46,706 nucleotides of DNA, from the IMG/VR virus record IMGVR_UViG_3300035524_000057, positions 1 to 46,706 of that record; one strand, 5' to 3'. The notes beneath the pieces were generated by a model. It did no database searches. It was not told the DNA's origin and saw only the letters and a program-made list of their open reading frames with translations. This document shows positions 3,724-42,574 of this stretch, in pieces. Source of the stretch: a virus (taxonomy: Duplodnaviria > Caudoviricetes). Every line of letters begins with the position of its first letter. Positions within the stretch are counted from its first letter, which is position 1. Made by a program: the position numbers and the translations under genes.

Positions 3724-6700
3724 CTAGTCCTCCCACCGTTTGCGGTAAGCAAGGTCTTTCATTTCAAAGTCCGGGTCATCTTGTATGGCGCGCCAAGCCG
3801 CTTCCCCGGTAATCCACGCTTGGTCCGTAGGCAGCCTGAGTAGCATCCCGGCAACGTCCAAGGCCTTTTTTGCCGCCATTCCGTACTCGCCCTCTTCAAC
3901 AACATCTTCATAGCCGTGCTTGAGCAACCAAATGGCTGATTTGAGGCCGCTTTCAACGGGTGTGATGGAATAGTCGTAAGGAGTCACGACGGCGTTCCCG
4001 ACGTCGCGGACATACGGGAACATCCCTAGCAGGAACAGCGCTGAGTTTTGCGCGGCCCAACCGGTCCACGTTTCATCTTGGTCCTCATCCGGCGGACGTC
4101 CAGAAAGCAATTCCGCGACAGAAGGCCCAAGCACGGCAAGCAATGTTGCCGTCCACGCGAATTCTGCGAAGTGGACTTTCCTCCCGCGTAGCGGCTTGCC
4201 TATCATGTTGTAAGCGGTGGAAAGGAATGAATAGAACATGGTCGCCATCTTCACGAACTCGGAATGTGATCGCTGGATTTTTGAACGGTCTTTCATTTCG
4301 CCGCCGCCCTGACTCATGCGAACAACGCTGTCCGCATACCGAGCGGCCCGTTCATGGTCCCCGCTTTTTTCCATCTCTGCGTCGAACGCCGCGCCCCATG
4401 TTGCCACGTCCACCGTATATTTCTGGGCTACGCCGATGAGTCGCAAGAAGACGTCTCCAGCTTTATCCAAAGCCTTTTTGCGCATGGAAAGGGAAGAAAA
4501 CACGTCTGTTGTCTCCCGGCTCACGTTGGCTATCCTGTCGCGCATAAACGCTGAATTCGCGTCCGCAAACCGTGCCATCGAGAGAAACTTGTCAGGCCTG
4601 CTATAGACCTTGAGCAGTCTCCACCAATCCTTTTTAAGCACCGCCGCAGATTGCAACACACCAGCAGCTTGCTGCATCCCAACCGACACTTTGGCAAGTC
4701 TGGCAACCGTGGTCCCGATTCGCAAATGCCGGAAAAGCCGTTCCCAGGAGTTTACAGGTTCCGGCGGCACGTTGGCGATGTCCTTTGCCCATGGGACGAG
4801 CTGATCGGCAAGTTCTTTCCCTAAATACGTCTCCGCAGCCGAGATGAACTCTTTGTCCCGCAAAACCTTGCCCATTTGTACGACGCGCTCACGGTGCGTC
4901 AGGTCGTGGGTCACGCCAAGCAGGTGCTTGGCAATGTCCCCAAGGTCGGTGGAAAGGGGCTGGCTCCCGGCGCTTTGGGCGCGCTCCTTGAGGTGTCCGT
5001 GTTTGGTCATGATGTGCGTCGGACTTTTGCCAAAGAGCTTTGCCTTTTCCAGATCCAGCCGGGCCTGCTGACGGGAGCTGTCATTGTGCGATATGATTAC
5101 GGGGAAATATCCCCCGCGGTATACGCCGTGCGGGGTGCGCACTTCACGGGCCTCAACCTTTGTTGGTCTGCGCCCGGTGAGCCTCTCTTCCAGGTCAAAA
5201 GCAGGGCCGCCGTAAGTGTCGATGTAGTCCCAAATAGCCTGGACAAAATCCCAATCGCGCTTGCCAAGCTTGGAAACCACAGCCTGCATTTGCGCGTCCG
5301 ACCACCCGTCGCCATCACGCCTGCGCGTGTAGTTGCCCTCGTTGCCAAAGTCCAAGGCAATCCGCACGATTTGCCCATGCGTGAACGTCTTCCCAACCTC
5401 GCGGACGCGGATTCTCTTTTGCAGCAGCCCCCCCTGCTCACGCGTGGAATAATGGGAGTCAAGAAGGTTCTTCAGGTCTTTGCTGATTCGGGCCAGCATC
5501 GTGTTTTTATCACTCGCGGCGTCGTCTGCCGGGCGATAAAACGTATCAAACCAAACCCCCATGTCATCGCCGTCAATTACGCGCAACAAGTGCTCAATTT
5601 TCACCATTTCAGCGTCCATCGACCGCAGCCAACGGAGCGTTTTCGCCGCCTTGCTGTACTGTTCCCGGAATCTGTCCCGATCTTTCGGGGCATACGTCTT
5701 CTTCAGCTGCTCGACCAACTCACCCACAACTTTCTTGACTGCTTTTCGTTCGCCGTTGATAAGGACAGTGCGTTCTTCGCGGTCCACCGTCTCAATCTGC
5801 TTGCGCGCGTCCATTACGCTTCGGAATTGGTTGACAGTCAGGTCTTTATAATCACCCAGGTTCGAACGGTCCGACACGATGTCGGCAAAGGCAACAGGGT
5901 AGCCATTCTCGGCAGCCTCAGCGGCCCAAGCGGAAAAGTTCGTGCTTCGGCCTCCAACCTGTTCGCCGCTTGCGTCAAATTGTGCTTGGCCCTCAATGAA
6001 CTTATTCCACTTCTTGATGGTCTGCTCGATGGTTTCCCCGGCACGACGCTTGAACCCAAAGCGGTAAGCAAGATCAAGCAGAAGGTCGCGCTGGGCCTGA
6101 CGCATGGTCTTGTGCTTTACCGCGCGGAGCATGGCACGACGTCCGCTTTCTATTTCCTCGCGCACCCTGCGGGCTTCGGCGGCCATCTCAAAATTCAACC
6201 GCGCCTTATGACCTGCTCTAGCAGCCGCCCCCCAATCGCCCTTTTTGATTGCAAGCCTTTCCTCTCGCGTGGATCGCTTAACTGCGGACATGAACAGATC
6301 AACTCTGGTAGCATCACGCACAGACATTTGTTCCACGGCCCGCCTTGCCTGCGCCTTAAACGCACTTCGGGCAACGGCCTTCCGGCTCTTCGGGTCAGCC
6401 TGCATGATCTGACCTTTGGACTGGACGTAGTTCGCCAGTACCCCAAGATAGTCAGCGTAGCCGTCCGTCTGAACAAGAAAGTCTTCCGCTTTGAGCGACT
6501 GTTCAAACTCAGCTTGCAATTCAGCAACACGGGCTTTTACGGCCTTCTGGAAGGGGAGGTAGTTTTCCAGGGCGGAAAGAAAGTCTTCCATGGAGGCAAA
6601 CCCGGCTTCCACCGCAGCCTCTTCAGGGGACATTCCCCCCTCCTTGAAGAGCTTCTTCCCGCGCGGGGGTTTGTTCCCTGAAGATTTGGGGCGTGGTTTT

Positions 6701-9700
6701 ACGCCGTGCGTTTCCGCGATTTCTTTACGCGAGGCCGAGCCAAGCAGGTAATCAACGATGTCGTCAGTGTCGCCGAGATATCCGTTCTGCTCTGCCCAAT
6801 CCGCCAGCTCGTCAATGTGGTACTGGGAATCCTTCGCAAAGAAGCCGGGGCCAAACTTGCGCATGAGTTCCCGCGTTGCCCACGTGCCATACGCGTTCGT
6901 CACGGACGTCGCAGAAAGCACCCGACGGGCGCGGCGCACCACCGGGGATTCAAAATCTTCAATATAGAGATGGCTTAACGCGTCTTCACGCAGAATTTCC
7001 AGATGTTCGGCGGACAGCCCAGCCTGTTCCTGGGCAACATCATTTTCCAACCGCTCTATGAACAGGTTGAATTCTTCATGGCCGATGTTTAGTTCTTCCC
7101 AGATTCCTCCGAACGGGACTTCGGCGTGGGCGTCAAGGATTCCGATGTCGACTGTCCCATCGTCTCTGGACGCAAACTCTCGGATTTTTGCTTCAATTTC
7201 CGCATCTCGTCGCGCAGATTCAGTAATTGTGCCGCGCGAATAATCTGTTCCCTGGTTGGGGGACTGTACTTGTCCTCGCTCATTTTTAGGCTCCTGCTGC
7301 TTTTTCTTTTCCCCAAACCGCCCACGGATGGCCTCAACGGTCTCCTCTCCCCATGTCCAGGCCGCGACATCAGGGTCAATACCTCTCCCGGCCACAATCT
7401 TGTCCATGGCAGTATGGACGCCCTTTGCCGCAATCTCTTCTTCCGCTTGCCGCTTCCAGTTCTCACGGTTCCCGCGAACGCCTTTTTTTCTGGCAGAGAG
7501 CAAAGCGGCCTCTGCCTTCTCCTGTGCATCGCCCATAATGCGCGAAAGATATTCCTGATCCTCCACGGAGATGCCGAGGCTGTCCATTTCCGCCTTTGTC
7601 ATAGGGGACAGCCCCACCATGTCAGCAGCAAGCTCAACATTCGATTCAGCAACCAACAGGCGGTCAAACACGCCGCGAACCTCAGGCGTAAGTTTCGCGT
7701 CAAGCTGTGATATGTGCTTGTAGATCTGCTTCAGCCAACGCTTAAAGCGGGCAAACGCCCCCATTAGTTCAGGCGTAGGGGCTTTGCCTTCCATGAGGTA
7801 GGTTTCAAAACCTCTTGCAAACTTCTCATGCTTGGCGATCTGCCGCGCACGCTCCCTCTCCGCTTCTGTCAACGCGTCAAACGTCCTGCCGCCAAAATGC
7901 GATTGAACGTACTTGCTATACGACTTGGCCAGAGCTTCGTCACTATCGAGATCAGAAAGCCACTTGCGGGCAACAAGATAATCCTCTTGCAGGGCTTGAT
8001 TCGCATAGCCTCCGTCCACAAGCCTGCCCATTTCTTCAAAAAAGACGTGCGCCATTTCGTGGAACGGTGTGGAGGCGTCCGCGTTCTCAAACAGGTTCAC
8101 GATATACCCGTCAGATCGAATTTGCGTTGCGCCCTTGGCCCCCTGGTAAAAGATCCTCTCATCGTACGGGTCAAACGTCCCCAGGTTGTAAACGGACTTG
8201 ATTTGTGTGGGGTCGAAAACGGCATATGTTTTGTGTTGGCCTTCGTCGCGGGTGTTATCAACAAAGACAACACTGTCGTATCCCTCTTCGCGCGCCCAAT
8301 TAATGAAATCGGACATCATCCCGTCTGCGTAGTTCCCGGCGGCCTCTAGAAACGTTTCCCACAAAGACCCATCAACAAGACCGCCATTCTCCTCCAGGAC
8401 CGAGGGGAGGTTCCCGCCGCAGTAACCTTCTGCGAATTCTTCAATATCTTCTGCGCTGTTAACATATAGCGGGTCTTCAGCCTGGAGATACACTTTAAAA
8501 ATACTGTCTCTTCCATCTCCATATTCAAGGGCAGCGTCTATGTCCGGGGTGAAAAACGTTGCTTCAGATTGAATACTATCAGTTCCCTCATTTGCTCCAG
8601 GTGTGAACACAAACTCTTTGTCACTTGTGTCTCCCATTTGCGTCCCGTGGTACACCACCAGCGGCTTGCCTTCCGCATCCACCACCTGGGAATCGCCGAA
8701 CCACCGTTTGAACTCCGGCGTGTCGATTTTGGCCTCGCCGGTCTCCTGGTTGTAGGTCACCCCGTCCACGTCCTGCCCCGCCACGATGTTGCGCGGCTGG
8801 TTGAACTGTACGCGGGCCATCAACTCAGACGCGCTCACGCCGTCCGAACGCATGGCAAGGGAGGTTACGGCCCTGGCAAGCGTCTGTGCCGCCTCTCGGG
8901 CCACCTGGGGGCTTGCCCCAACCTGTATGGCCTCAGCCTCAATTCTTTGCTGCTGCGCCGTGAATTCGGACTGTTCCGAAGCGTAGGCGTCGAACCGCTC
9001 TTGCAGCTCCCCGGCCTCCATGGCCATGCCTTCGCGCACCTGCCGGACAGAGTGTGCGCCGGGGGACGGCTTGATCGAATCAAAAAGCTGTTCCTTTACT
9101 TCGGTCGAAAGCCGCGTGTGGAACGCGCCCAGGTCCACGCGGATATCGCGCCCCTGCTCCGCGTCCTGCACCACCTTGACGGCTTCAACCCCGAGCGTCC
9201 GGGCAAACTCTTCAACAACTCCGGGTGCGCTTTGGTTCAGCTCCAGGATGGTTTCGCCTTCAATAAACGCATCCTGCTTGCCAAGCCCCATGTGCTCGTC
9301 CAGGAAACGTTCCATCAACGCGGGGTCACGCTCAATCAACCGTTGGCCGTTGGTGTCCACGGCCTCGGAAAGCTGTCGCTGGGCGTCGGCAAAGCTAGCT
9401 GAAGCTGCGTTATCGGTAGTTTCGTGCGCACGGCGCTGGATGCTTGTAACCAGACTCGGGCCAGACCCACCCAGAAAACCCCCAACAAAAGATTCCAGAT
9501 TGCGAAGGGAGCCGACGACTTCAGCGTGCAATTCGTCATCCCGCAACCCACGGGCAAGACCACTGAAAAGGGCTTGGTACGGCTCTTCGGCGTATTCCGT
9601 CAGCCCCTCTGAGGTCGCCCCGAGAAGCCCCCGCGCCGCACGCCCGGCAAACGTCCTGGCTCCCTTTCCGCCAAGAACCCCATCAAGGCCCAGCTTGTTG

Positions 9701-10656
9701 AGCGCGCCCGTTGTAATCCCGAACAAGATTGACGAGTTCAACGCTGTTTGGTTGTCTACATCTTCAGATATAAGCTCGTTAAAGAGGGCCCCCGCCTCCA
9801 TCATCCCGCCAACAATCCCGCCTACGGCGGAGCTGCCACCGGACATATACGCGGCGGCAATCGTCGCGGCGAGCGAAGGCGCGGCCTCCCCAAATGTATT
9901 GATCAAAAATTCCGGGTCGCTGAAAAGCCCCCAGTCAACGTTCCAATTCTCATCAACAAGACGCCTCCCGTCTATGACCTCGGACGGCCTTAACCACTCC
10001 ACGCCCTCAAGCAGGTTGCGGATGTTGTCGGCATCATCTTGCGCCCAATCTCTGAGGCGGGCAAAAGACCCGTCATAGCCAAGACCAGTCGCTTCGCCGA
10101 ACCCCTTGTGCATCGCGTCAAGGCCGCCAAACACCATCCCGATCATTTCATCAACACTTGCTCCGAGATGCGGGATGAATTTTACAGTCTGTTGCCCCAG
10201 GGCCATCGCCGAACGCGCGAAAGCGCCCGGCTTGTCTCCAGCCTCTTCTATTTTAGCCAATGCTTCCGTCTGATCAAACGCAAGCAAGGCCGCTTCAGGG
10301 TCGGTGAGCAACATGCGCGTGGCCTTGCTACCCTTGAGCGCGGCACTGGCCCTTTGGTTGTTTGCCAATTCTTCGGCGTAGTCCGGGGCTTCCTGCACCG
10401 CCCGCAGAGGCACGCCGAGTTGACCGGCAATCGCTTTTTGCTTGGCCGTGTCATCCGGGTTTACCCCTGCCATGCCAGCCAGCCGGACATTGCGCTCGGA
10501 CGGGTCCGGTTCCGGCGTGCTGAAGTCTATGCCGTAGATATCTTCAGACGGGCTTGACCTTTCCACCTCCGGGACAAGCGGGGCTTGCAGCGGACTTTCA
10601 GGCTCCGGCCGGGTTTGGGCGTCATCTCCAAAGTCTATGCCGTAGATGTTGCCCAT
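3724..10656 (-). CDS. Giant internal virion (DNA ejection) protein, polyvalent type, with an ART-PolyVal-like domain and HExxH motif (2310 aa)
   Basis: Occupies the T7 gp16-equivalent position; contains FKRWFGDS..VD..GKPLVVYHGT...FDPTQIKS and NADASTPFHEMAH; largely helical composition. Confidence 0.8.
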   Translation of the reverse strand: MGNIYGIDFGDDAQTRPEPESPLQAPLVPEVERSSPSEDIYGIDFSTPEPDPSERNVRLAGMAGVNPDDTAKQKAIAGQLGVPLRAVQEAPDYAEELANNQRASAALKGSKATRMLLTDPEAALLAFDQTEALAKIEEAGDKPGAFARSAMALGQQTVKFIPHLGASVDEMIGMVFGGLDAMHKGFGEATGLGYDGSFARLRDWAQDDADNIRNLLEGVEWLRPSEVIDGRRLVDENWNVDWGLFSDPEFLINTFGEAAPSLAATIAAAYMSGGSSAVGGIVGGMMEAGALFNELISEDVDNQTALNSSILFGITTGALNKLGLDGVLGGKGARTFAGRAARGLLGATSEGLTEYAEEPYQALFSGLARGLRDDELHAEVVGSLRNLESFVGGFLGGSGPSLVTSIQRRAHETTDNAASASFADAQRQLSEAVDTNGQRLIERDPALMERFLDEHMGLGKQDAFIEGETILELNQSAPGVVEEFARTLGVEAVKVVQDAEQGRDIRVDLGAFHTRLSTEVKEQLFDSIKPSPGAHSVRQVREGMAMEAGELQERFDAYASEQSEFTAQQQRIEAEAIQVGASPQVAREAAQTLARAVTSLAMRSDGVSASELMARVQFNQPRNIVAGQDVDGVTYNQETGEAKIDTPEFKRWFGDSQVVDAEGKPLVVYHGTQMGDTSDKEFVFTPGANEGTDSIQSEATFFTPDIDAALEYGDGRDSIFKVYLQAEDPLYVNSAEDIEEFAEGYCGGNLPSVLEENGGLVDGSLWETFLEAAGNYADGMMSDFINWAREEGYDSVVFVDNTRDEGQHKTYAVFDPTQIKSVYNLGTFDPYDERIFYQGAKGATQIRSDGYIVNLFENADASTPFHEMAHVFFEEMGRLVDGGYANQALQEDYLVARKWLSDLDSDEALAKSYSKYVQSHFGGRTFDALTEAERERARQIAKHEKFARGFETYLMEGKAPTPELMGAFARFKRWLKQIYKHISQLDAKLTPEVRGVFDRLLVAESNVELAADMVGLSPMTKAEMDSLGISVEDQEYLSRIMGDAQEKAEAALLSARKKGVRGNRENWKRQAEEEIAAKGVHTAMDKIVAGRGIDPDVAAWTWGEETVEAIRGRFGEKKKQQEPKNERGQVQSPNQGTDYSRGTITESARRDAEIEAKIREFASRDDGTVDIGILDAHAEVPFGGIWEELNIGHEEFNLFIERLENDVAQEQAGLSAEHLEILREDALSHLYIEDFESPVVRRARRVLSATSVTNAYGTWATRELMRKFGPGFFAKDSQYHIDELADWAEQNGYLGDTDDIVDYLLGSASRKEIAETHGVKPRPKSSGNKPPRGKKLFKEGGMSPEEAAVEAGFASMEDFLSALENYLPFQKAVKARVAELQAEFEQSLKAEDFLVQTDGYADYLGVLANYVQSKGQIMQADPKSRKAVARSAFKAQARRAVEQMSVRDATRVDLFMSAVKRSTREERLAIKKGDWGAAARAGHKARLNFEMAAEARRVREEIESGRRAMLRAVKHKTMRQAQRDLLLDLAYRFGFKRRAGETIEQTIKKWNKFIEGQAQFDASGEQVGGRSTNFSAWAAEAAENGYPVAFADIVSDRSNLGDYKDLTVNQFRSVMDARKQIETVDREERTVLINGERKAVKKVVGELVEQLKKTYAPKDRDRFREQYSKAAKTLRWLRSMDAEMVKIEHLLRVIDGDDMGVWFDTFYRPADDAASDKNTMLARISKDLKNLLDSHYSTREQGGLLQKRIRVREVGKTFTHGQIVRIALDFGNEGNYTRRRDGDGWSDAQMQAVVSKLGKRDWDFVQAIWDYIDTYGGPAFDLEERLTGRRPTKVEAREVRTPHGVYRGGYFPVIISHNDSSRQQARLDLEKAKLFGKSPTHIMTKHGHLKERAQSAGSQPLSTDLGDIAKHLLGVTHDLTHRERVVQMGKVLRDKEFISAAETYLGKELADQLVPWAKDIANVPPEPVNSWERLFRHLRIGTTVARLAKVSVGMQQAAGVLQSAAVLKKDWWRLLKVYSRPDKFLSMARFADANSAFMRDRIANVSRETTDVFSSLSMRKKALDKAGDVFLRLIGVAQKYTVDVATWGAAFDAEMEKSGDHERAARYADSVVRMSQGGGEMKDRSKIQRSHSEFVKMATMFYSFLSTAYNMIGKPLRGRKVHFAEFAWTATLLAVLGPSVAELLSGRPPDEDQDETWTGWAAQNSALFLLGMFPYVRDVGNAVVTPYDYSITPVESGLKSAIWLLKHGYEDVVEEGEYGMAAKKALDVAGMLLRLPTDQAWITGEAAWRAIQDDPDFEMKDLAYRKRWED

Positions 10657-33282: not shown

Positions 33283-33332
33283 ATTTCAAATTTGAAATTT
33301 TATCTTGACCTTTGTTTCAAATTTGGTATTCT
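33283..33332 (+). promoter_or_regulatory. Early promoter (lambda PL-equivalent) with operators
   Basis: Perfect palindrome ATTTCAAATTTGAAAT 33283-33298; TTGACC 33305-33310, 16 bp, TATTCT with upstream TG; operator TTTCAAATTTGGTA 33315-33328. Confidence 0.7.
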
Positions 33333-33510
33333 CTCTTCACCAACGCGGCACACCGCCCCGAAAACCCTCGCCACGGCAGGAAGTACGGGCAGGAGCCGCG
33401 AAGGTACCCGGCCAGGGCGGCAGGGAGGCGCGAACAGCCGAGAGGCTCAGTAAACGACCTAGAACGAGGCCCACGATGGACGGGGAAAACGCAAACATGG
33501 AGGCAAACAG

Positions 33511-34464
33511 ATGCGAGAGCTGGCCGAAGACGAAATTCAAATCCTGCAACGACACAGAAAATTCCTTGCTGGCGAGGTTGGCGGAGAGCTGGCCGACCTG
33601 AGAGGGGCCGACCTGAGAGGGGCCGACCTGTTCAGGGCCGACCTGAGCGAGGCCGACCTGAGAGGGGCCGACCTGAGAGAGGCCAACCTGAGAGGGGCCG
33701 ACCTGAGAGGGGCCAACCTGAGAGAGGCCAACCTGAGAGGGGCCGACCTGTTCAGGGCCGACCTGAGAGGGGCCAACCTGTTCAGGGCCAACCTGAGAGG
33801 GGCCAACCTGTTCAGGGCCAACCTGAGCGAGGCCGACCTGAGAGGGGCCGACCTGAGAGGGGCCGACCTGAGAGGGGCCGACCTGTTCAGGGCCGACCTG
33901 AGCGAGGCCGACCTGAGAGAGGCCAACCTGAGAGGGGCCGACCTGTTCAGGGCCGACCTGTTCAGGGCCAACCTGAGAGGGGCCGACCTGAGAGAGGTCG
34001 ACCTGAGAGGGGCCAGCCTGTTCAGGGCCAACCTGTTCAGGGCCAACCTGAGAGAGGCCGACCTGTTCAGGGCCGACCTGAGCGAGGCCGACCTGAGAGG
34101 GGCCAACCTGAGAGAGGCCGACCTGAGAGAGGTCGACCTGAGAGGGGCCAGCCTGTTCAGGGCCAACCTGTTCAGGGCCAACCTGAGAGAGGCCGACCTG
34201 AGAGAGGTCGACCTGAGAGGGGCCAGCCTGAGCGAGGCCGACCTGAGAGGGGCCAACCTTGATTTCTCTTGCTGGCCGCTTCACTGCGGCTCGACAACTC
34301 CCAAAGTGGACGACCGTTTTTTTGCACAACTCATTTTTCATCTCACGCGTCTAGACGTATCTGCGGCTTCGGGCGGGGTTCGCGAGGCGATGGATTACAT
34401 CCGCCAGATGGCCGCGGCAGACTTATTTTGCGAGTACCGCCACGACCTGAGGCGGATTGACTAG
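33511..34464 (+). CDS. Pentapeptide-repeat protein (317 aa)
   Basis: GGAGG RBS; about 45 A(D/N)Lxx repeats flanked by IL..H..FL.G..GG and LDFSCWPL.CGS, typical of phage pentapeptide proteins. Confidence 0.95.
   Translation: MRELAEDEIQILQRHRKFLAGEVGGELADLRGADLRGADLFRADLSEADLRGADLREANLRGADLRGANLREANLRGADLFRADLRGANLFRANLRGANLFRANLSEADLRGADLRGADLRGADLFRADLSEADLREANLRGADLFRADLFRANLRGADLREVDLRGASLFRANLFRANLREADLFRADLSEADLRGANLREADLREVDLRGASLFRANLFRANLREADLREVDLRGASLSEADLRGANLDFSCWPLHCGSTTPKVDDRFFAQLIFHLTRLDVSAASGGVREAMDYIRQMAAADLFCEYRHDLRRID
33592..34260 (+). repeat. 15-bp coding tandem array, about 45 units
   Basis: Units are (AGAGGG/TTCAGG/AGCGAG/AGAGAG)+(GCCGACCTG/GCCAACCTG/GTCGACCTG/GCCAGCCTG); 44 full units in 33601-34260. 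Confidence 0.97.
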
Positions 34465-39452: not shown

Positions 39453-40133
39453 ATGCAGGTTAAGCCTATTTTGTTTAGCGGTCCGGATGTTCGGGCTGTC
39501 TTTGACGGGTGGAAGACGCAGATGCGGCGGGTTGTTGAGCCGCAACCTGACGAAGATGGGCTGTGCAGGTGGGCGCCAGACGCACCCGGTGTTCCATTTA
39601 GCTATGAGCATAACGTTTGGCGTGACACCTCCGACAGTGTTTACAGGCCACGATATGTCCCCGGTGACATTTTGTGGGTGCGGGAGACGCACGGTTTCTT
39701 TTGCCCTGGCGACCCCAAAACCGGCTTACCAGACCGCAGCGACATCCGAATCATCTATCCAGCAACCGACGAAGTTCCGGACATCGGAGTCGATGAAGAC
39801 GACTGGTTCATTGATGAGCGTCCGCTCCCCATGCGCCCCTCCATTCACATGCCCAAGTGGGCGTGCCGTTTGTGGCTCCGCGTGACGGACACGGACGTAG
39901 AGCAGATTCAGGACATGACGGAGCAGGGCGCAGAAGCAGAAGGGTTCACCTCGATTGCGGAACATTCTCCAGGCAGGCCAGATAAGATGATAAGAACAGC
40001 TCGCCAATCGTTCCGCGACCATTGGGAAACCCGCTACCCCGGCTCGTGGGAGCGTAATGACTGGGTGTGGGTATACGAATTCGAGCGTTGCGAAAGGCCG
40101 GCAGGGTGGCCAGAGAGTGAGGTCGCGGCGTGA
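39453..40133 (+). CDS. ASCH/PUA-like phage protein
   Basis: PILFS...VRA..DG.KTQ.RR, PGD.LWVRET, RPSIHMPKWACRL.L, VE..QD.....A.AEG, WVWVYEF. Confidence 0.75.
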   Translation: MQVKPILFSGPDVRAVFDGWKTQMRRVVEPQPDEDGLCRWAPDAPGVPFSYEHNVWRDTSDSVYRPRYVPGDILWVRETHGFFCPGDPKTGLPDRSDIRIIYPATDEVPDIGVDEDDWFIDERPLPMRPSIHMPKWACRLWLRVTDTDVEQIQDMTEQGAEAEGFTSIAEHSPGRPDKMIRTARQSFRDHWETRYPGSWERNDWVWVYEFERCERPAGWPESEVAA

Positions 40134-41092
40134 CGCTGACGGTAGGCTCCCTGTTCTCCGGCATCGGAGGACTTGACTTGGGTTTGTCCTGGGCCGGGAT
40201 GCGCCACAAATGGTTTGTGGAGCAAAACCCGGATCGTCAAACCGTGCTGGCCGACCATTGGCCAGATGCGACCATATACGGAGACATCGATGCCATCGAC
40301 CTCTCAAGCCTTGCTCCCGTTGACCTCATCGTCGGGGGATTCCCCTGCCAGGGCTTTAGCCTCGCCGGGATCCGAAAAGGCACGGCAGATGACCGTTTCC
40401 TCTGGCCAAAAATGTTTGAGGTTGTGCAGGCTGTCCGCCCCAGATGGGTCTTGGCAGAAAATGTTCCTGGGATCACTTCTACTGAATCCGGAGTGGCGGT
40501 CAGCAGAGTTTTTTTTGACCTGGAGAGTTGTGGATATGACTTGCTCCGCGGTCCAGACGGGCACCCTGCGCTACTCGATATTCCGGCTTGCGGAGTCAAT
40601 GCCCCGCACATACGCCACAGAGTCTTTTTCGTTGGACACCGCATCGAGGATGACATGGGCGACCCCTGCCGCGAGGGATTACAGGCACCCGAACAGCCCG
40701 GAAAGCCAGGAGCGAAGGAAGCAAGGCCGGGAGAAGGCCGGGGAACAGCTGCCCAACCAGGTGGCACAGGAAGTGTGGAGGACTCCGCAGGCCGCGATGA
40801 CGAGTGCCAAGGCGAACGTCACGAAGCTGAAAGGGAGAGAGGCCACAGACCCGCAGGTGGGGTTGCCGGACCAAGTAGCCCACTTGACCACTGGGACGCC
40901 GCCGAACACATCCTCTGCAACGACGGGAAAGCCCGCCGCGTGCCCACCGCTGAATCCAGGATTCGTCTTGTGGCTCATGGGGTTCCCCGCCGGCTGGCTC
41001 AAATCTCTGGAGCAGGAGACGCGGTAGTGCCCCAAGTCGCATACATGATTGGCCGGGCTATTATCCAGGCAGATACGGAGGACCTAGCATGA
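40130..41092 (+). CDS. C5-cytosine DNA methyltransferase, main (alpha) chain, lacking in-frame motif IX
   Basis: Motif I SLFSGIGG, IV GGFPCQ, VI ENV, VIII HIRHRVF, X GDAVVPQVA. Confidence 0.92.
   Translation: MTLTVGSLFSGIGGLDLGLSWAGMRHKWFVEQNPDRQTVLADHWPDATIYGDIDAIDLSSLAPVDLIVGGFPCQGFSLAGIRKGTADDRFLWPKMFEVVQAVRPRWVLAENVPGITSTESGVAVSRVFFDLESCGYDLLRGPDGHPALLDIPACGVNAPHIRHRVFFVGHRIEDDMGDPCREGLQAPEQPGKPGAKEARPGEGRGTAAQPGGTGSVEDSAGRDDECQGERHEAERERGHRPAGGVAGPSSPLDHWDAAEHILCNDGKARRVPTAESRIRLVAHGVPRRLAQISGAGDAVVPQVAYMIGRAIIQADTEDLA
40290..41027 (+). CDS. Overlapping +1-frame ORF: putative beta chain of the methyltransferase (TRD-like repeats plus motif IX)
   Basis: Frame open 40173-41027; GGAG 6 nt before ATG 40290; W(A/R)TP.A...LP(N/D)QVA twice, then LNPGFVLWLMGFPAGW. 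Confidence 0.65.
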   Translation: MPSTSQALLPLTSSSGDSPARALASPGSEKARQMTVSSGQKCLRLCRLSAPDGSWQKMFLGSLLLNPEWRSAEFFLTWRVVDMTCSAVQTGTLRYSIFRLAESMPRTYATESFSLDTASRMTWATPAARDYRHPNSPESQERRKQGREKAGEQLPNQVAQEVWRTPQAAMTSAKANVTKLKGREATDPQVGLPDQVAHLTTGTPPNTSSATTGKPAACPPLNPGFVLWLMGFPAGWLKSLEQETR

Positions 41093-41131
41093 GCACATGC
41101 TTGGAAGAAAAGACCCTCTTGAGGCATTGAC

Positions 41132-41359
41132 ATGGAAGATCTGATGTACGTTCCCGCCAAGAAGGCCGCGTCCATTTGCGGCTATTCGCACCGCCATTTC
41201 ATGCGGCTGGTGGCGGAATACGACATCCCGCGCTACGGTCCCGGGAGCAACCGCTTTCTTGTGTCGGACCTGCATCTATTCATGGAGAATCCCCACGCGT
41301 TTAAGGCGGTAGCCAAATCCCGACATCGGCACGGTGCCTTTACTCCGGTTGCGGCCTAG
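41132..41359 (+). CDS. xis: Excisionase-like HTH protein
   Basis: AKKAASICGYS...F...IPRYG....RF..SDL..FM; immediately upstream of the integrase. Confidence 0.75.
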   Translation: MEDLMYVPAKKAASICGYSHRHFMRLVAEYDIPRYGPGSNRFLVSDLHLFMENPHAFKAVAKSRHRHGAFTPVAA

Positions 41360-41373
41360 GGTATCGGGCTGGG

Positions 41374-42426
41374 ATGAGCGTCCACAAGACCAAAACAGGC
41401 ACATGGTACGTCCAGTACCGGGTCAAAGGCCAAAAGTCCCCCATCAAGGAGTACACGGGCAAGGGACGGGCCGGAAAACGTGACGCTGAAGTCCGTGACG
41501 CAGAAATAAAGCTCATGAAGGCCAAGGGAGACGAACCCAGGGCCACGAGCAAAGTCTATCTGGACCAGCTTGCCCAAGCATATCTGGATGACGCAAAACG
41601 GCGGCGCGTGTCCGAGCGCTACCGCAAAGAGTTCGCTGCGCTGCTCAACGCGTACATTCTCCCCTCGCTCTGCCACAAGCCGGTTGACCACCTTTCTCAC
41701 GAGGACGTAATGCGCGTTGCTTCCCGCTGGGAAAACGCCTCCACAGCCACCCAAAACAGATATATGGGATATCTGCGCTCAGTGTTCCGATTCGGGATCA
41801 AGTACGACCTGACAAGCGTGAACCCTCTGGCGAAGTGGGAGAAGGTCCGCGAGCGCAAGTACGAAATGCGCCTGACCGTGGCCGACCTCCAGCGCATCCA
41901 CGCGGCAGCCGAGCCGCACTTGCAGTGGACCCTGGAGGTGGCCTTGAACCTCGGCACGCGCCCCGGGACCACCGAGCTGTTTGCGCTGCGATGGGACGAT
42001 GTGGACTACCAGTCAGGAACGGTGCACGTCCGGGGTACCAAGACGGAAAAATCCGACCGCATCATCCCTTTTTCGGCGGGATTCCGCACTCGGCTGCTGG
42101 GACAGCAGCGCGTGGCCACCACGGACTACCTGATCGAGTACAACGGCAAGCCCGTCAAGTCGGTCAAGCGGGCATGGGCCACGGCCCTGCGCCGGGCAGG
42201 CATTACCTATCGCGTACGACTCTACGACGTGCGCCACCTGTTCGCCACAACCATGTTGGCCGGAGGCGCGGACCTGGCCGCAGTATCAAAGCTCCTAGGC
42301 CATGCCTCCATCCGCACCACGCAGGAACATTATTACCAGCTCCTCCAAGGTGAAATGGAACGCGCGGTCGCCAAGCTGCCTTCGCTGGCCCCCACCAAAC
42401 AGGGCAAAATTATCAAGATAGGGTGA
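41374..42426 (+). CDS. int: Tyrosine recombinase / phage integrase
   Basis: Catalytic pattern R (GTRPG), K (GTKT), YDVRH (Tyr in place of the first His), LLGH, and C-terminal Tyr; next to the tRNA. Confidence 0.95.
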   Translation: MSVHKTKTGTWYVQYRVKGQKSPIKEYTGKGRAGKRDAEVRDAEIKLMKAKGDEPRATSKVYLDQLAQAYLDDAKRRRVSERYRKEFAALLNAYILPSLCHKPVDHLSHEDVMRVASRWENASTATQNRYMGYLRSVFRFGIKYDLTSVNPLAKWEKVRERKYEMRLTVADLQRIHAAAEPHLQWTLEVALNLGTRPGTTELFALRWDDVDYQSGTVHVRGTKTEKSDRIIPFSAGFRTRLLGQQRVATTDYLIEYNGKPVKSVKRAWATALRRAGITYRVRLYDVRHLFATTMLAGGADLAAVSKLLGHASIRTTQEHYYQLLQGEMERAVAKLPSLAPTKQGKIIKIG

Positions 42427-42499: not shown

Positions 42500-42574
42500 T
42501 GGTAGGCGCGGAGGGATTTGAACCCCCGACCCTCTGCACGTCAAGCAGATGCTCTCCCCCTGAGCTACGCGCCT
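42500..42574 (-). tRNA. tRNA-Val(GAC), prophage attachment site
   Basis: Acceptor AGGCGCG/CGCGCCT plus ACCA; anticodon arm TCTGC-TTGACGT-GCAGA; T-loop GTTCAAATC; 75 nt. Confidence 0.97.

Follow-up and report, generated by a model that had tools for sequence, protein, structure and literature searches.

The Escherichia coli enzyme M.EcoHK31I (target YGGCCR) is described, in the available text of two reports, as a C5 (cytosine-5) methyltransferase whose beta chain is encoded by a frame nested inside the gene for alpha; motifs I to VIII, motif X, and a predicted target-recognition domain (TRD) are on alpha, and motif IX is on beta (PMC2836561, PMC3404938). The first of these reports, in the part available, gives internal Met starts for beta, an enzyme that is inactive without beta, and a weakened association of the chains once 42 or more N-terminal residues of beta are deleted (PMC2836561). 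M.AquI (CYCGRG) is likewise presented as a two-polypeptide C5 methyltransferase, with motif X on its small chain (PMC3404938, available text), and temperate phages of Bacillus are said to encode multispecific C5 methyltransferases with arrayed target-recognition domains (available text of PMC12707154, citing Trautner et al. 1996). As far as the accessible parts of this literature go, a nested layout with two chains counts as an oddity confined to one E. coli enzyme, the one for which it is proven. Here we describe a gene of the same layout in a prophage, the 46,706-nucleotide IMG/VR record IMGVR_UViG_3300035524_000057 (the whole stretch analyzed, called the window below, with all unprefixed coordinates being its positions). 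The gene is 963 bases long; its main frame encodes the catalytic chain, alpha, and a second open reading frame (ORF) in the +1 frame encodes a putative second chain, beta (Table 1).

The dual coding is real and selected, not a product of chance or error. This conclusion rests on 166 sequences, made up of the window, 5 annotated phage loci, the best 80 of at least 590 confirmed viral loci, and the best 80 of at least 518 confirmed genomic loci. By pattern search, 163 of them have the catalytic ORF; a motif-IX-like segment, LNPGFVLWLMGFPAGW in the window, lies in the +1 frame of 150 and the +2 frame of 3, and none has it in the main frame. All three +2 cases are single-base shifts (L047, L130, and L152). 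Inspection by eye of the 16 pattern misses showed 8 to be dual coded (L004, L028, L059, L071, L115, L124, L155, and L164); of the others, three are the single-base shifts just named, L063, L070, and L149 are cut by a contig end, L123 is disrupted, and L143 has motifs IX and X in +1. Among 119 alpha homologues, none carries the segment in frame. An earlier note on this DNA had tied its proposal of a nested second chain to the conservation of both open frames in homologues, and these counts bear it out.

Stop codons tell the same story. For the 136 distinct loci with a +1 motif IX, a motif X, and a closed ORF, the expectation was taken from synonymous resampling. Between motifs IV and VIII, a single +1 stop occurs in 12,666 codons, where 493 are expected, and from VIII to IX there are 0 in 13,670 codons. 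The upstream control region has 239 stops against 247 expected, the +2 frame has a stop rate of about 5% throughout, and 28 stops fall in the 658 comparable codons of seven canonical single-chain enzymes. Selection also reaches the amino acids of beta inside the overlap (Ser, 97 versus 21 expected; Asp, 79 versus 29). In the window, the +1 frame is without stops over 882 nucleotides, from 40146 to 41027, of which the earlier note had correctly counted 855 from the TTG at 40173; its stop codon, at 41025-41027, falls within main-frame motif X. The two chains overlap on the same strand for about 740 nucleotides spanning the catalytic motifs, and synonymous-codon resampling of the main frame left the stretch from 40290 to motif X open in only 0.6% of 2000 draws. 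Between 40290 and 41024, 26 single-base changes would each create a +1 stop without altering the main-frame protein. As in the M.EcoHK31I type, the second ORF is wholly nested, lies in another frame, and is kept by selection. A profile of 91 betas matches 52,147 cluster representatives (50% identity) at an E value of ≤0.001 and 11,396 at 1e-30, and motif IV or X appears in 0 of its 150 best matches. The five annotated dual-coded phage records each have one frame annotated, never both.

Since stop avoidance starts between motifs III and IV, the +1 reading begins there. At the column of window position 40296, there are 25 stops against 26 expected; the next stretch has 6 against 16, the columns of 40320-40388 (motif IV) have 3 against 121, and those of 40389-40641 have 0 against 471. 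Where the last +1 stop lies at most 26 codons from the catalytic Pro, the interval contains a start codon (ATG, GTG, or TTG) in 44 of 44 loci (29.5 expected), often directly after the stop, and an ATG in 36 (23 expected); the remaining 90 loci have a start codon in 81 cases, compared with 70 expected. An early frameshift near motif III, fusing alpha residues 1-55 to the +1 chain, predicts an identical stop-depletion boundary and would fit a first ATG that stands at no fixed column. The start codons of all the tightly bounded loci argue against it, however, as do the lack of a slippery run in 40270-40330 and the internal Met starts documented for M.EcoHK31I beta (PMC2836561, in the part available), and we consider it very unlikely. 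A later programmed +1 shift near 40620-40650, named in the earlier note as an alternative route, would join motifs I to VIII to the downstream modules and motif IX and so restore the canonical order I-VIII-TRD-IX, and T runs exist at 40509-40515 and 40625-40629. It does not survive the family data and is highly improbable: the +1 frame is stop-free under selection for about 100 codons upstream of the proposed site (the 0 versus 471 above), beta amino acids are selected upstream of it as well, the shifted protein would stop at 41027 and lack motif X, and the run of seven T at 40509 is broken in a divergent relative from another sample, X5 (T40515C).

Initiation inside the gene, likely at ATG 40290, is the better account of how beta would be made. 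The GGAG that the earlier note had placed 6 nucleotides before this ATG is there, and it gives the strongest Shine-Dalgarno (SD)-like duplex (-6.6 kcal/mol) of the +1 starts upstream of motif IV; neighboring genes have duplexes of -5.2 to -11.7 kcal/mol. Judging from the differences listed for X5, GGAG and ATG 40290 appear to be kept in that relative. ATG 40266 was considered as a start and rejected, its SD-like duplex being weak (-1.5 kcal/mol) and its codon being lost in X5.

The main frame retains the full set of catalytic residues. With motif labels that follow the established C5 methyltransferase nomenclature, alpha has motifs I, IV (with its PC), VI, VIII, and X in a Rossmann-type large domain, and P72, C73, and Q74 are invariant among 92 aligned sequences. 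Its match to Pfam family PF00145 is confined to residues 4-175 (E 9.7e-39), and it further matches TIGR00675 and phrog_363 (E 4e-64). An AlphaFold2 model built from the 92 sequences is confident for the large domain and the C-terminal helix and disordered in the gap between them (mean predicted local distance difference test [pLDDT] score, 75). Foldseek matches the model best to M.HaeIII and M.HhaI, across about 172 columns (M.HaeIII structure 1dct, E 8.8e-15, root mean square deviation 1.5). What a canonical PF00145 protein has between motifs VIII and X, a TRD and motif IX, is absent from this frame. Residues 173-255 are instead 53% G, E, R, or P and 7% large hydrophobic residues, pLDDT falls below 50 over residues 188-200 and 204-255, and the alpha alignment has no conserved columns in this filler, so the earlier note's description of five motifs around a G/E/R/P-rich filler without motif IX is accurate, and the coordinates that it gives hold throughout. 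The closest alpha relative found, P0004 (421 amino acids, from a Desulfovibrionaceae metagenome-assembled genome), is 76% identical; its filler is about 100 residues longer, with room for about three more cassettes of the kind described below, and it has a rare insertion after motif VII in common with the window. A metagenome scan for close relatives gave 9 loci, all distant, and no relative turned up when viral sequences were scanned with P0001 alone.

The segment missing from alpha is present in the +1 frame, at the place where the earlier note had seen it, and its residues G231 and P233 are invariant in 91 betas. Natural fusions indicate where it belongs. In L166, motifs I to VIII, three modules, the IX-like segment, and motif X all lie in one frame, between VIII and X where the modules and the segment are concerned; the +1 frame of this gene has 13 stops, and the beta profile aligns to the single chain at a probability of 98.5 (E 2e-15). 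L166 is without the N-terminal part of beta, about 120 residues, and because the single chain has no such part, this suggests that it serves chain association. Mycobacterium phage Babsiella gp54 (L175:1201-3048) is also a single chain with modules, IX-like segment, and motif X in frame. These two proteins are the part of an earlier claim, that single-chain phage enzymes carry the segment in frame, that held up; in L005, what is annotated is the +1 chain alone. In a tree of the alpha core (48 rows from a quick search, with most inner branches without support), the two single-chain relatives group among dual-coded loci, apart from the canonical enzymes.

The fusions also bear on whether beta might be an accessory or independent DNA-binding factor beside an alpha that methylates alone with relaxed specificity. 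Such a role would fit a beta that has no significant similarity to known small domains, and phage 5-methylcytosine enzymes of relaxed specificity have been reported (PMC6536676, in its available text; the likeness is by description, frame layout aside). It is unlikely, given that the modules and the IX-like segment are in-frame parts of L166 and L175, placed between VIII and X, that alpha has no folded small domain in the AlphaFold model, and that M.EcoHK31I alpha is reported as inactive without the beta starts (PMC2836561, in the part available).

Other arrangements occur around the same two frames. Babsiella gp55 (L175) is a short annotated +1 ORF with beta-like sequence and modules, giving this phage cassettes in both frames. 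In Acidovorax phage Alfacinha3 (L005:679-1845), the "cytosine-specific methyltransferase" of the annotation corresponds to the beta frame, and the catalytic frame is unannotated; this beta starts right where the catalytic frame starts and covers it along its entire length. At L143:1092-2150, the +1 frame runs from the N-terminal part of beta through a module and motif IX to a long linker and motif X, and the main frame ends without X. From its layout, this one locus is an AquI-like split and possibly an evolutionary intermediate.

Two W-x-T-P modules precede the IX-like segment in the window's beta. The earlier note had called them duplicated repeats; they are present where it put them, but they are two different cassettes on one scaffold. 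Aligned over 126 and 114 nucleotides, modules 1 and 2 have 55 identical columns, their BLOSUM score outside the WxTP core is 34, and only the scaffold is in common, which rules out a recent tandem duplication. Each has its nearest relative elsewhere: module 1 resembles the third of three modules in L006 (score 64, 95th percentile 37), and module 2 resembles the second (score 82, 95th percentile 27). L006, whose alpha core is 51% identical, therefore carries both window module types in reversed order. Across the family, the number of modules per locus runs from 0 to 7 (mode, 2), with every module contributing some 30 residues (r = 0.74). None of the 271 within-locus pairs among 297 modules in 136 loci is similar (score of ≥60), and module types recur between loci at differing positions. 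In this the modules are like cassettes that have been shuffled, not like tandem copies, and they resemble the arrayed target-recognition domains of the Bacillus temperate phages (PMC12707154); by its position, each cassette would read a DNA target. Two beta-type proteins, P0180 and P0187, have extra W-x-T-P-like modules N terminal to the docking region, over motifs I to III or upstream of the catalytic gene.

Tandem, different, and exchangeable cassettes between motifs VIII and IX are what a multispecific methylase would have. We entertain, as a tentative reading that we hold to be somewhat less than even, that the phage family consists of multispecific methylases whose overprinted recognition subunit is rebuilt by shuffling cassettes of about 30 to 40 residues, one target each. 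Cassettes could then be gained and lost freely because the main frame there need only be stop-free.

Copies in other samples, compared on contigs rather than raw reads, show the same two frames. The X1 contig, possibly from the source sample, is identical over 40000-41200 (1,201 nucleotides). X3 matches exactly, without gaps, at 40212-40714 and 40737-41063, and pieces from X7 (identical) and X9 are likewise gap-free. Over 40023-40563, one divergent contig from X5 differs at 33 positions but is free of gaps; for two X5 contigs, 46 differences are listed (23 of the 33 in one and 23 of the 25 in the other), and these create no stop in either frame. Compensating indels, which the earlier note had wished to see excluded, are absent from the X1, X3, X5, X7, and X9 pieces. 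We therefore give next to no credence to a sequencing or assembly artifact, in which paired indels would have disguised a single-chain gene: the contigs of X1, X3, X5, and X7 are identical or gap-free, and the same layout recurs in about 150 relatives.

Taken together, these observations make it likely that the gene yields the catalytic and DNA-recognition chains of one two-chain C5 methyltransferase of the M.EcoHK31I type, as the earlier note had proposed; selection on the +1 frame across the family, the natural fusion in L166, and the lack of indels elsewhere all support the proposal. Alpha would supply the S-adenosylmethionine-binding and catalytic domain, and beta would arise from a start inside the gene, with ATG 40290 the probable site. 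The first 120 or so residues of beta, written over motifs IV to VIII, would dock it on alpha, a role in keeping with the reported effect of deletions in M.EcoHK31I beta. The cassettes and motif IX would form a small DNA-reading domain, and the main-frame filler may be a passive loop that carries this reader across to motif X. The product would be an orphan methylase of the phage, shielding its DNA from host restriction, possibly at more than one target (one per cassette); the orphan role is the most likely one because no restriction endonuclease was recognized beside the gene.

Several points weigh against this model. Translation of beta, binding of the chains, recognition of DNA by the modules, and activity are things we infer from sequence. 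The segment aligns in register with canonical motif IX, but the similarity does not reach significance (hhalign E 0.11; E 1.9 for the alignment to PDB entry 4onq at motif IX), 0 of 91 betas match PF00145 in Pfam, and a fold search with beta found no PDB match at E ≤ 0.001. Beta alone is predicted poorly (mean pLDDT, 61; predicted template modeling score, 0.27), the most confident parts being the IX-like segment (pLDDT 80 to 89) and then module 1 (71 to 82). The GGAG doubles as motif III codons and may be incidental, and the column of ATG 40290 is unconserved (2 of 134 loci), the start column varying across the family. The TRD of M.EcoHK31I is placed in alpha, whereas the conserved modules of the window sit in beta and the corresponding alpha region is filler. 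The loci are related, so the counts above are not independent events, and the viral scan, whose pattern overlapped the IX-like segment, favors dual-coded matches (74 of 80), although the genome scan, with patterns in motifs IV and VIII only and without that bias, gave 71 of 80.

A close relative, X4, also weighs against the model. In its contig (depth 5), a change at 40835 is a stop in the main frame and silent in +1, and 432 letters replace 24 at 40957-40982 in the IX-like segment, a net gain of 408, which is a multiple of three. The X4 copy appears to be broken. The position at which its replacement starts, 40957, is also where one X5 contig has a loose end. The window copy might similarly be inactive within a family that is dual coded, with the apparent damage in X4, single-base shifts in 3 of 166 loci, and a motif X that reads GDAV rather than GNAV pointing that way. 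We see only a slim chance of this: both frames of the window are intact with the catalytic residues present, the GDAV form recurs in P0004, P0006, P0020, and P0041, and the X5 differences leave both frames open.

The N-terminal part of beta has one further feature in some members. A QLTLF-like pentamer occurs near the N terminus in 42 of 136 loci against 3.0 expected (26 with the strict form QL[STD]LF) and in 38 of the 150 best beta-profile matches; it is written in the +1 frame over the main-frame "xVDLI" preceding motif IV (window 40317-40331). The window's beta reads PLTSS at this site, without a QLTLF-like motif. QL[SD]LF is a sliding-clamp-binding consensus, and the motif, present in about one-fifth to one-third of members, might couple the enzyme to the host sliding clamp; alternatively, it could be a structural docking strand. 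A literature search on this motif found no paper.

The gene lies near one end of a prophage with genes for head, tail, terminase, and recombination, which ends in an integrase and a tRNA-Val. The GTG start of alpha overlaps the TGA stop of the upstream ORF (GTGA), an overlap through which alpha may be translationally coupled to that ORF. Downstream, the small HTH_17 protein is a candidate excisionase, a label taken from its domain and position, and the tRNA-Val(GAC) gene is likely the integration site of the prophage. The dual-coded methylase adjoins an integrase in the window and in 2 of 5 annotated phage loci (L001 and L004). No cognate restriction endonuclease was recognized among the neighbors or the longer prophage ORFs scanned, with PADLOC and some short ORFs outside the scan; that scan did find a phrog_452 "endonuclease" 7 kb from the methylase. 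Elsewhere in the window, long ORFs overlap on both strands at 33337-34464 (33337-34341 on the minus strand; 33312-34262 and 33511-34464 on the plus strand), and repeated matches of the ORF at 33511 to several unknown PHROG families suggest an internally repetitive protein. Positions 3724-10656 (minus strand) encode a virion-region protein of 2,310 amino acids (phrog_9880, E 1e-209; function unassigned).

Table 1. Features of the methylase gene and its surroundings, in window coordinates
Feature	Position	Strand	Basis or remark
Upstream phage ORF, 226 amino acids, function unassigned	39453..40133	+	phrog_874
GAGGT, resembling a ribosome-binding site, and GTG start of alpha	40119..40133	+	anti-SD duplex -9.4 kcal/mol
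Alpha ORF, 320 amino acids, GTG start: large domain with motifs I-VIII, then disordered filler and the motif X helix	40130..41092	+	
Motif I, FSGIGG, main frame	40154-40171	+	
GGAG-6nt-ATG, likely beta start	40280..40292	+	GGAG at 40280-40283, inside main-frame motif III (GDI)
Beta, 245 amino acids from ATG 40290	40290..41027	+	phrog_1008 E 5e-19; family stop depletion
Motif IV, GFPCQ, catalytic Cys73, main frame	40337..40351	+	
Motif VI, ENV, main frame	40457-40465	+	
Motif VIII (RxR), main frame	40607-40627	+	
Main-frame filler, overlaps beta modules	40646..40894	+	composition, pLDDT <50, unconserved
Beta module 1 (TWATPAA...LPNQVA), putative target-recognition cassette	40653..40766	+	
Beta module 2 (VWRTPQA...LPDQVA), different putative cassette	40773..40880	+	
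Motif-IX-like segment LNPGFVLWLMGFPAGW, +1 frame	40950..40997	+	
Motif X, GDAV (D variant), main frame	41015..41026	+	
Small HTH_17 protein	41132..41359	+	Pfam E 0.00085, below cut-off
Tyrosine integrase	41374..42426	+	PF00589, E 6e-22
tRNA-Val(GAC)	42500..42574	-	likely integration site, prophage end

The layout described for one E. coli enzyme is, in this widespread phage and prophage family, the normal state. Annotation of a single frame has practical consequences: codon-optimized cloning of the "gene" would destroy the second chain, and a specificity prediction made from the annotated protein would be reading filler. Should the cassettes prove to be recognition units, the family would represent a large natural library of swappable DNA-recognition modules, as well as a direct model for the evolution of overlapping genes and for the tuning of antirestriction methylation by phages. 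We found no literature describing the phage family as dual coded among titles and abstract openings, a search that left subscription journals and REBASE outside its range, and the available portions of two reports on phage cytosine methylases make no mention of a second frame (PMC2884959, PMC6536676). The PHROG database keeps alpha (PHROG 363) and beta (PHROG 1008) as separate families, both labeled "DNA methyltransferase."

Among known systems, M.EcoHK31I is the nearest in layout, a comparison made by its published description and not by sequence: in both, beta lies wholly in another frame within alpha, alpha has motifs I to VIII and X, motif IX is on beta, and a long N-terminal part of beta comes before it. 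The window family differs in its 0 to 7 shuffled W-x-T-P cassettes, its prophage setting, and the lack of a recognized partner endonuclease. M.AquI shares the split between a catalytic chain and a chain with the variable region and motif IX, but its motif X is on the small chain, whereas motif X of the window locus is on the large one. The Bacillus phage enzymes, likened here by description and not by sequence, are single polypeptides with experimentally mapped domains, whereas the window's cassettes lie in an overlapping frame and have a putative recognition role. Like the window's enzyme, they are phage borne and have, between motifs VIII and IX, a tandem array of several distinct cassettes.

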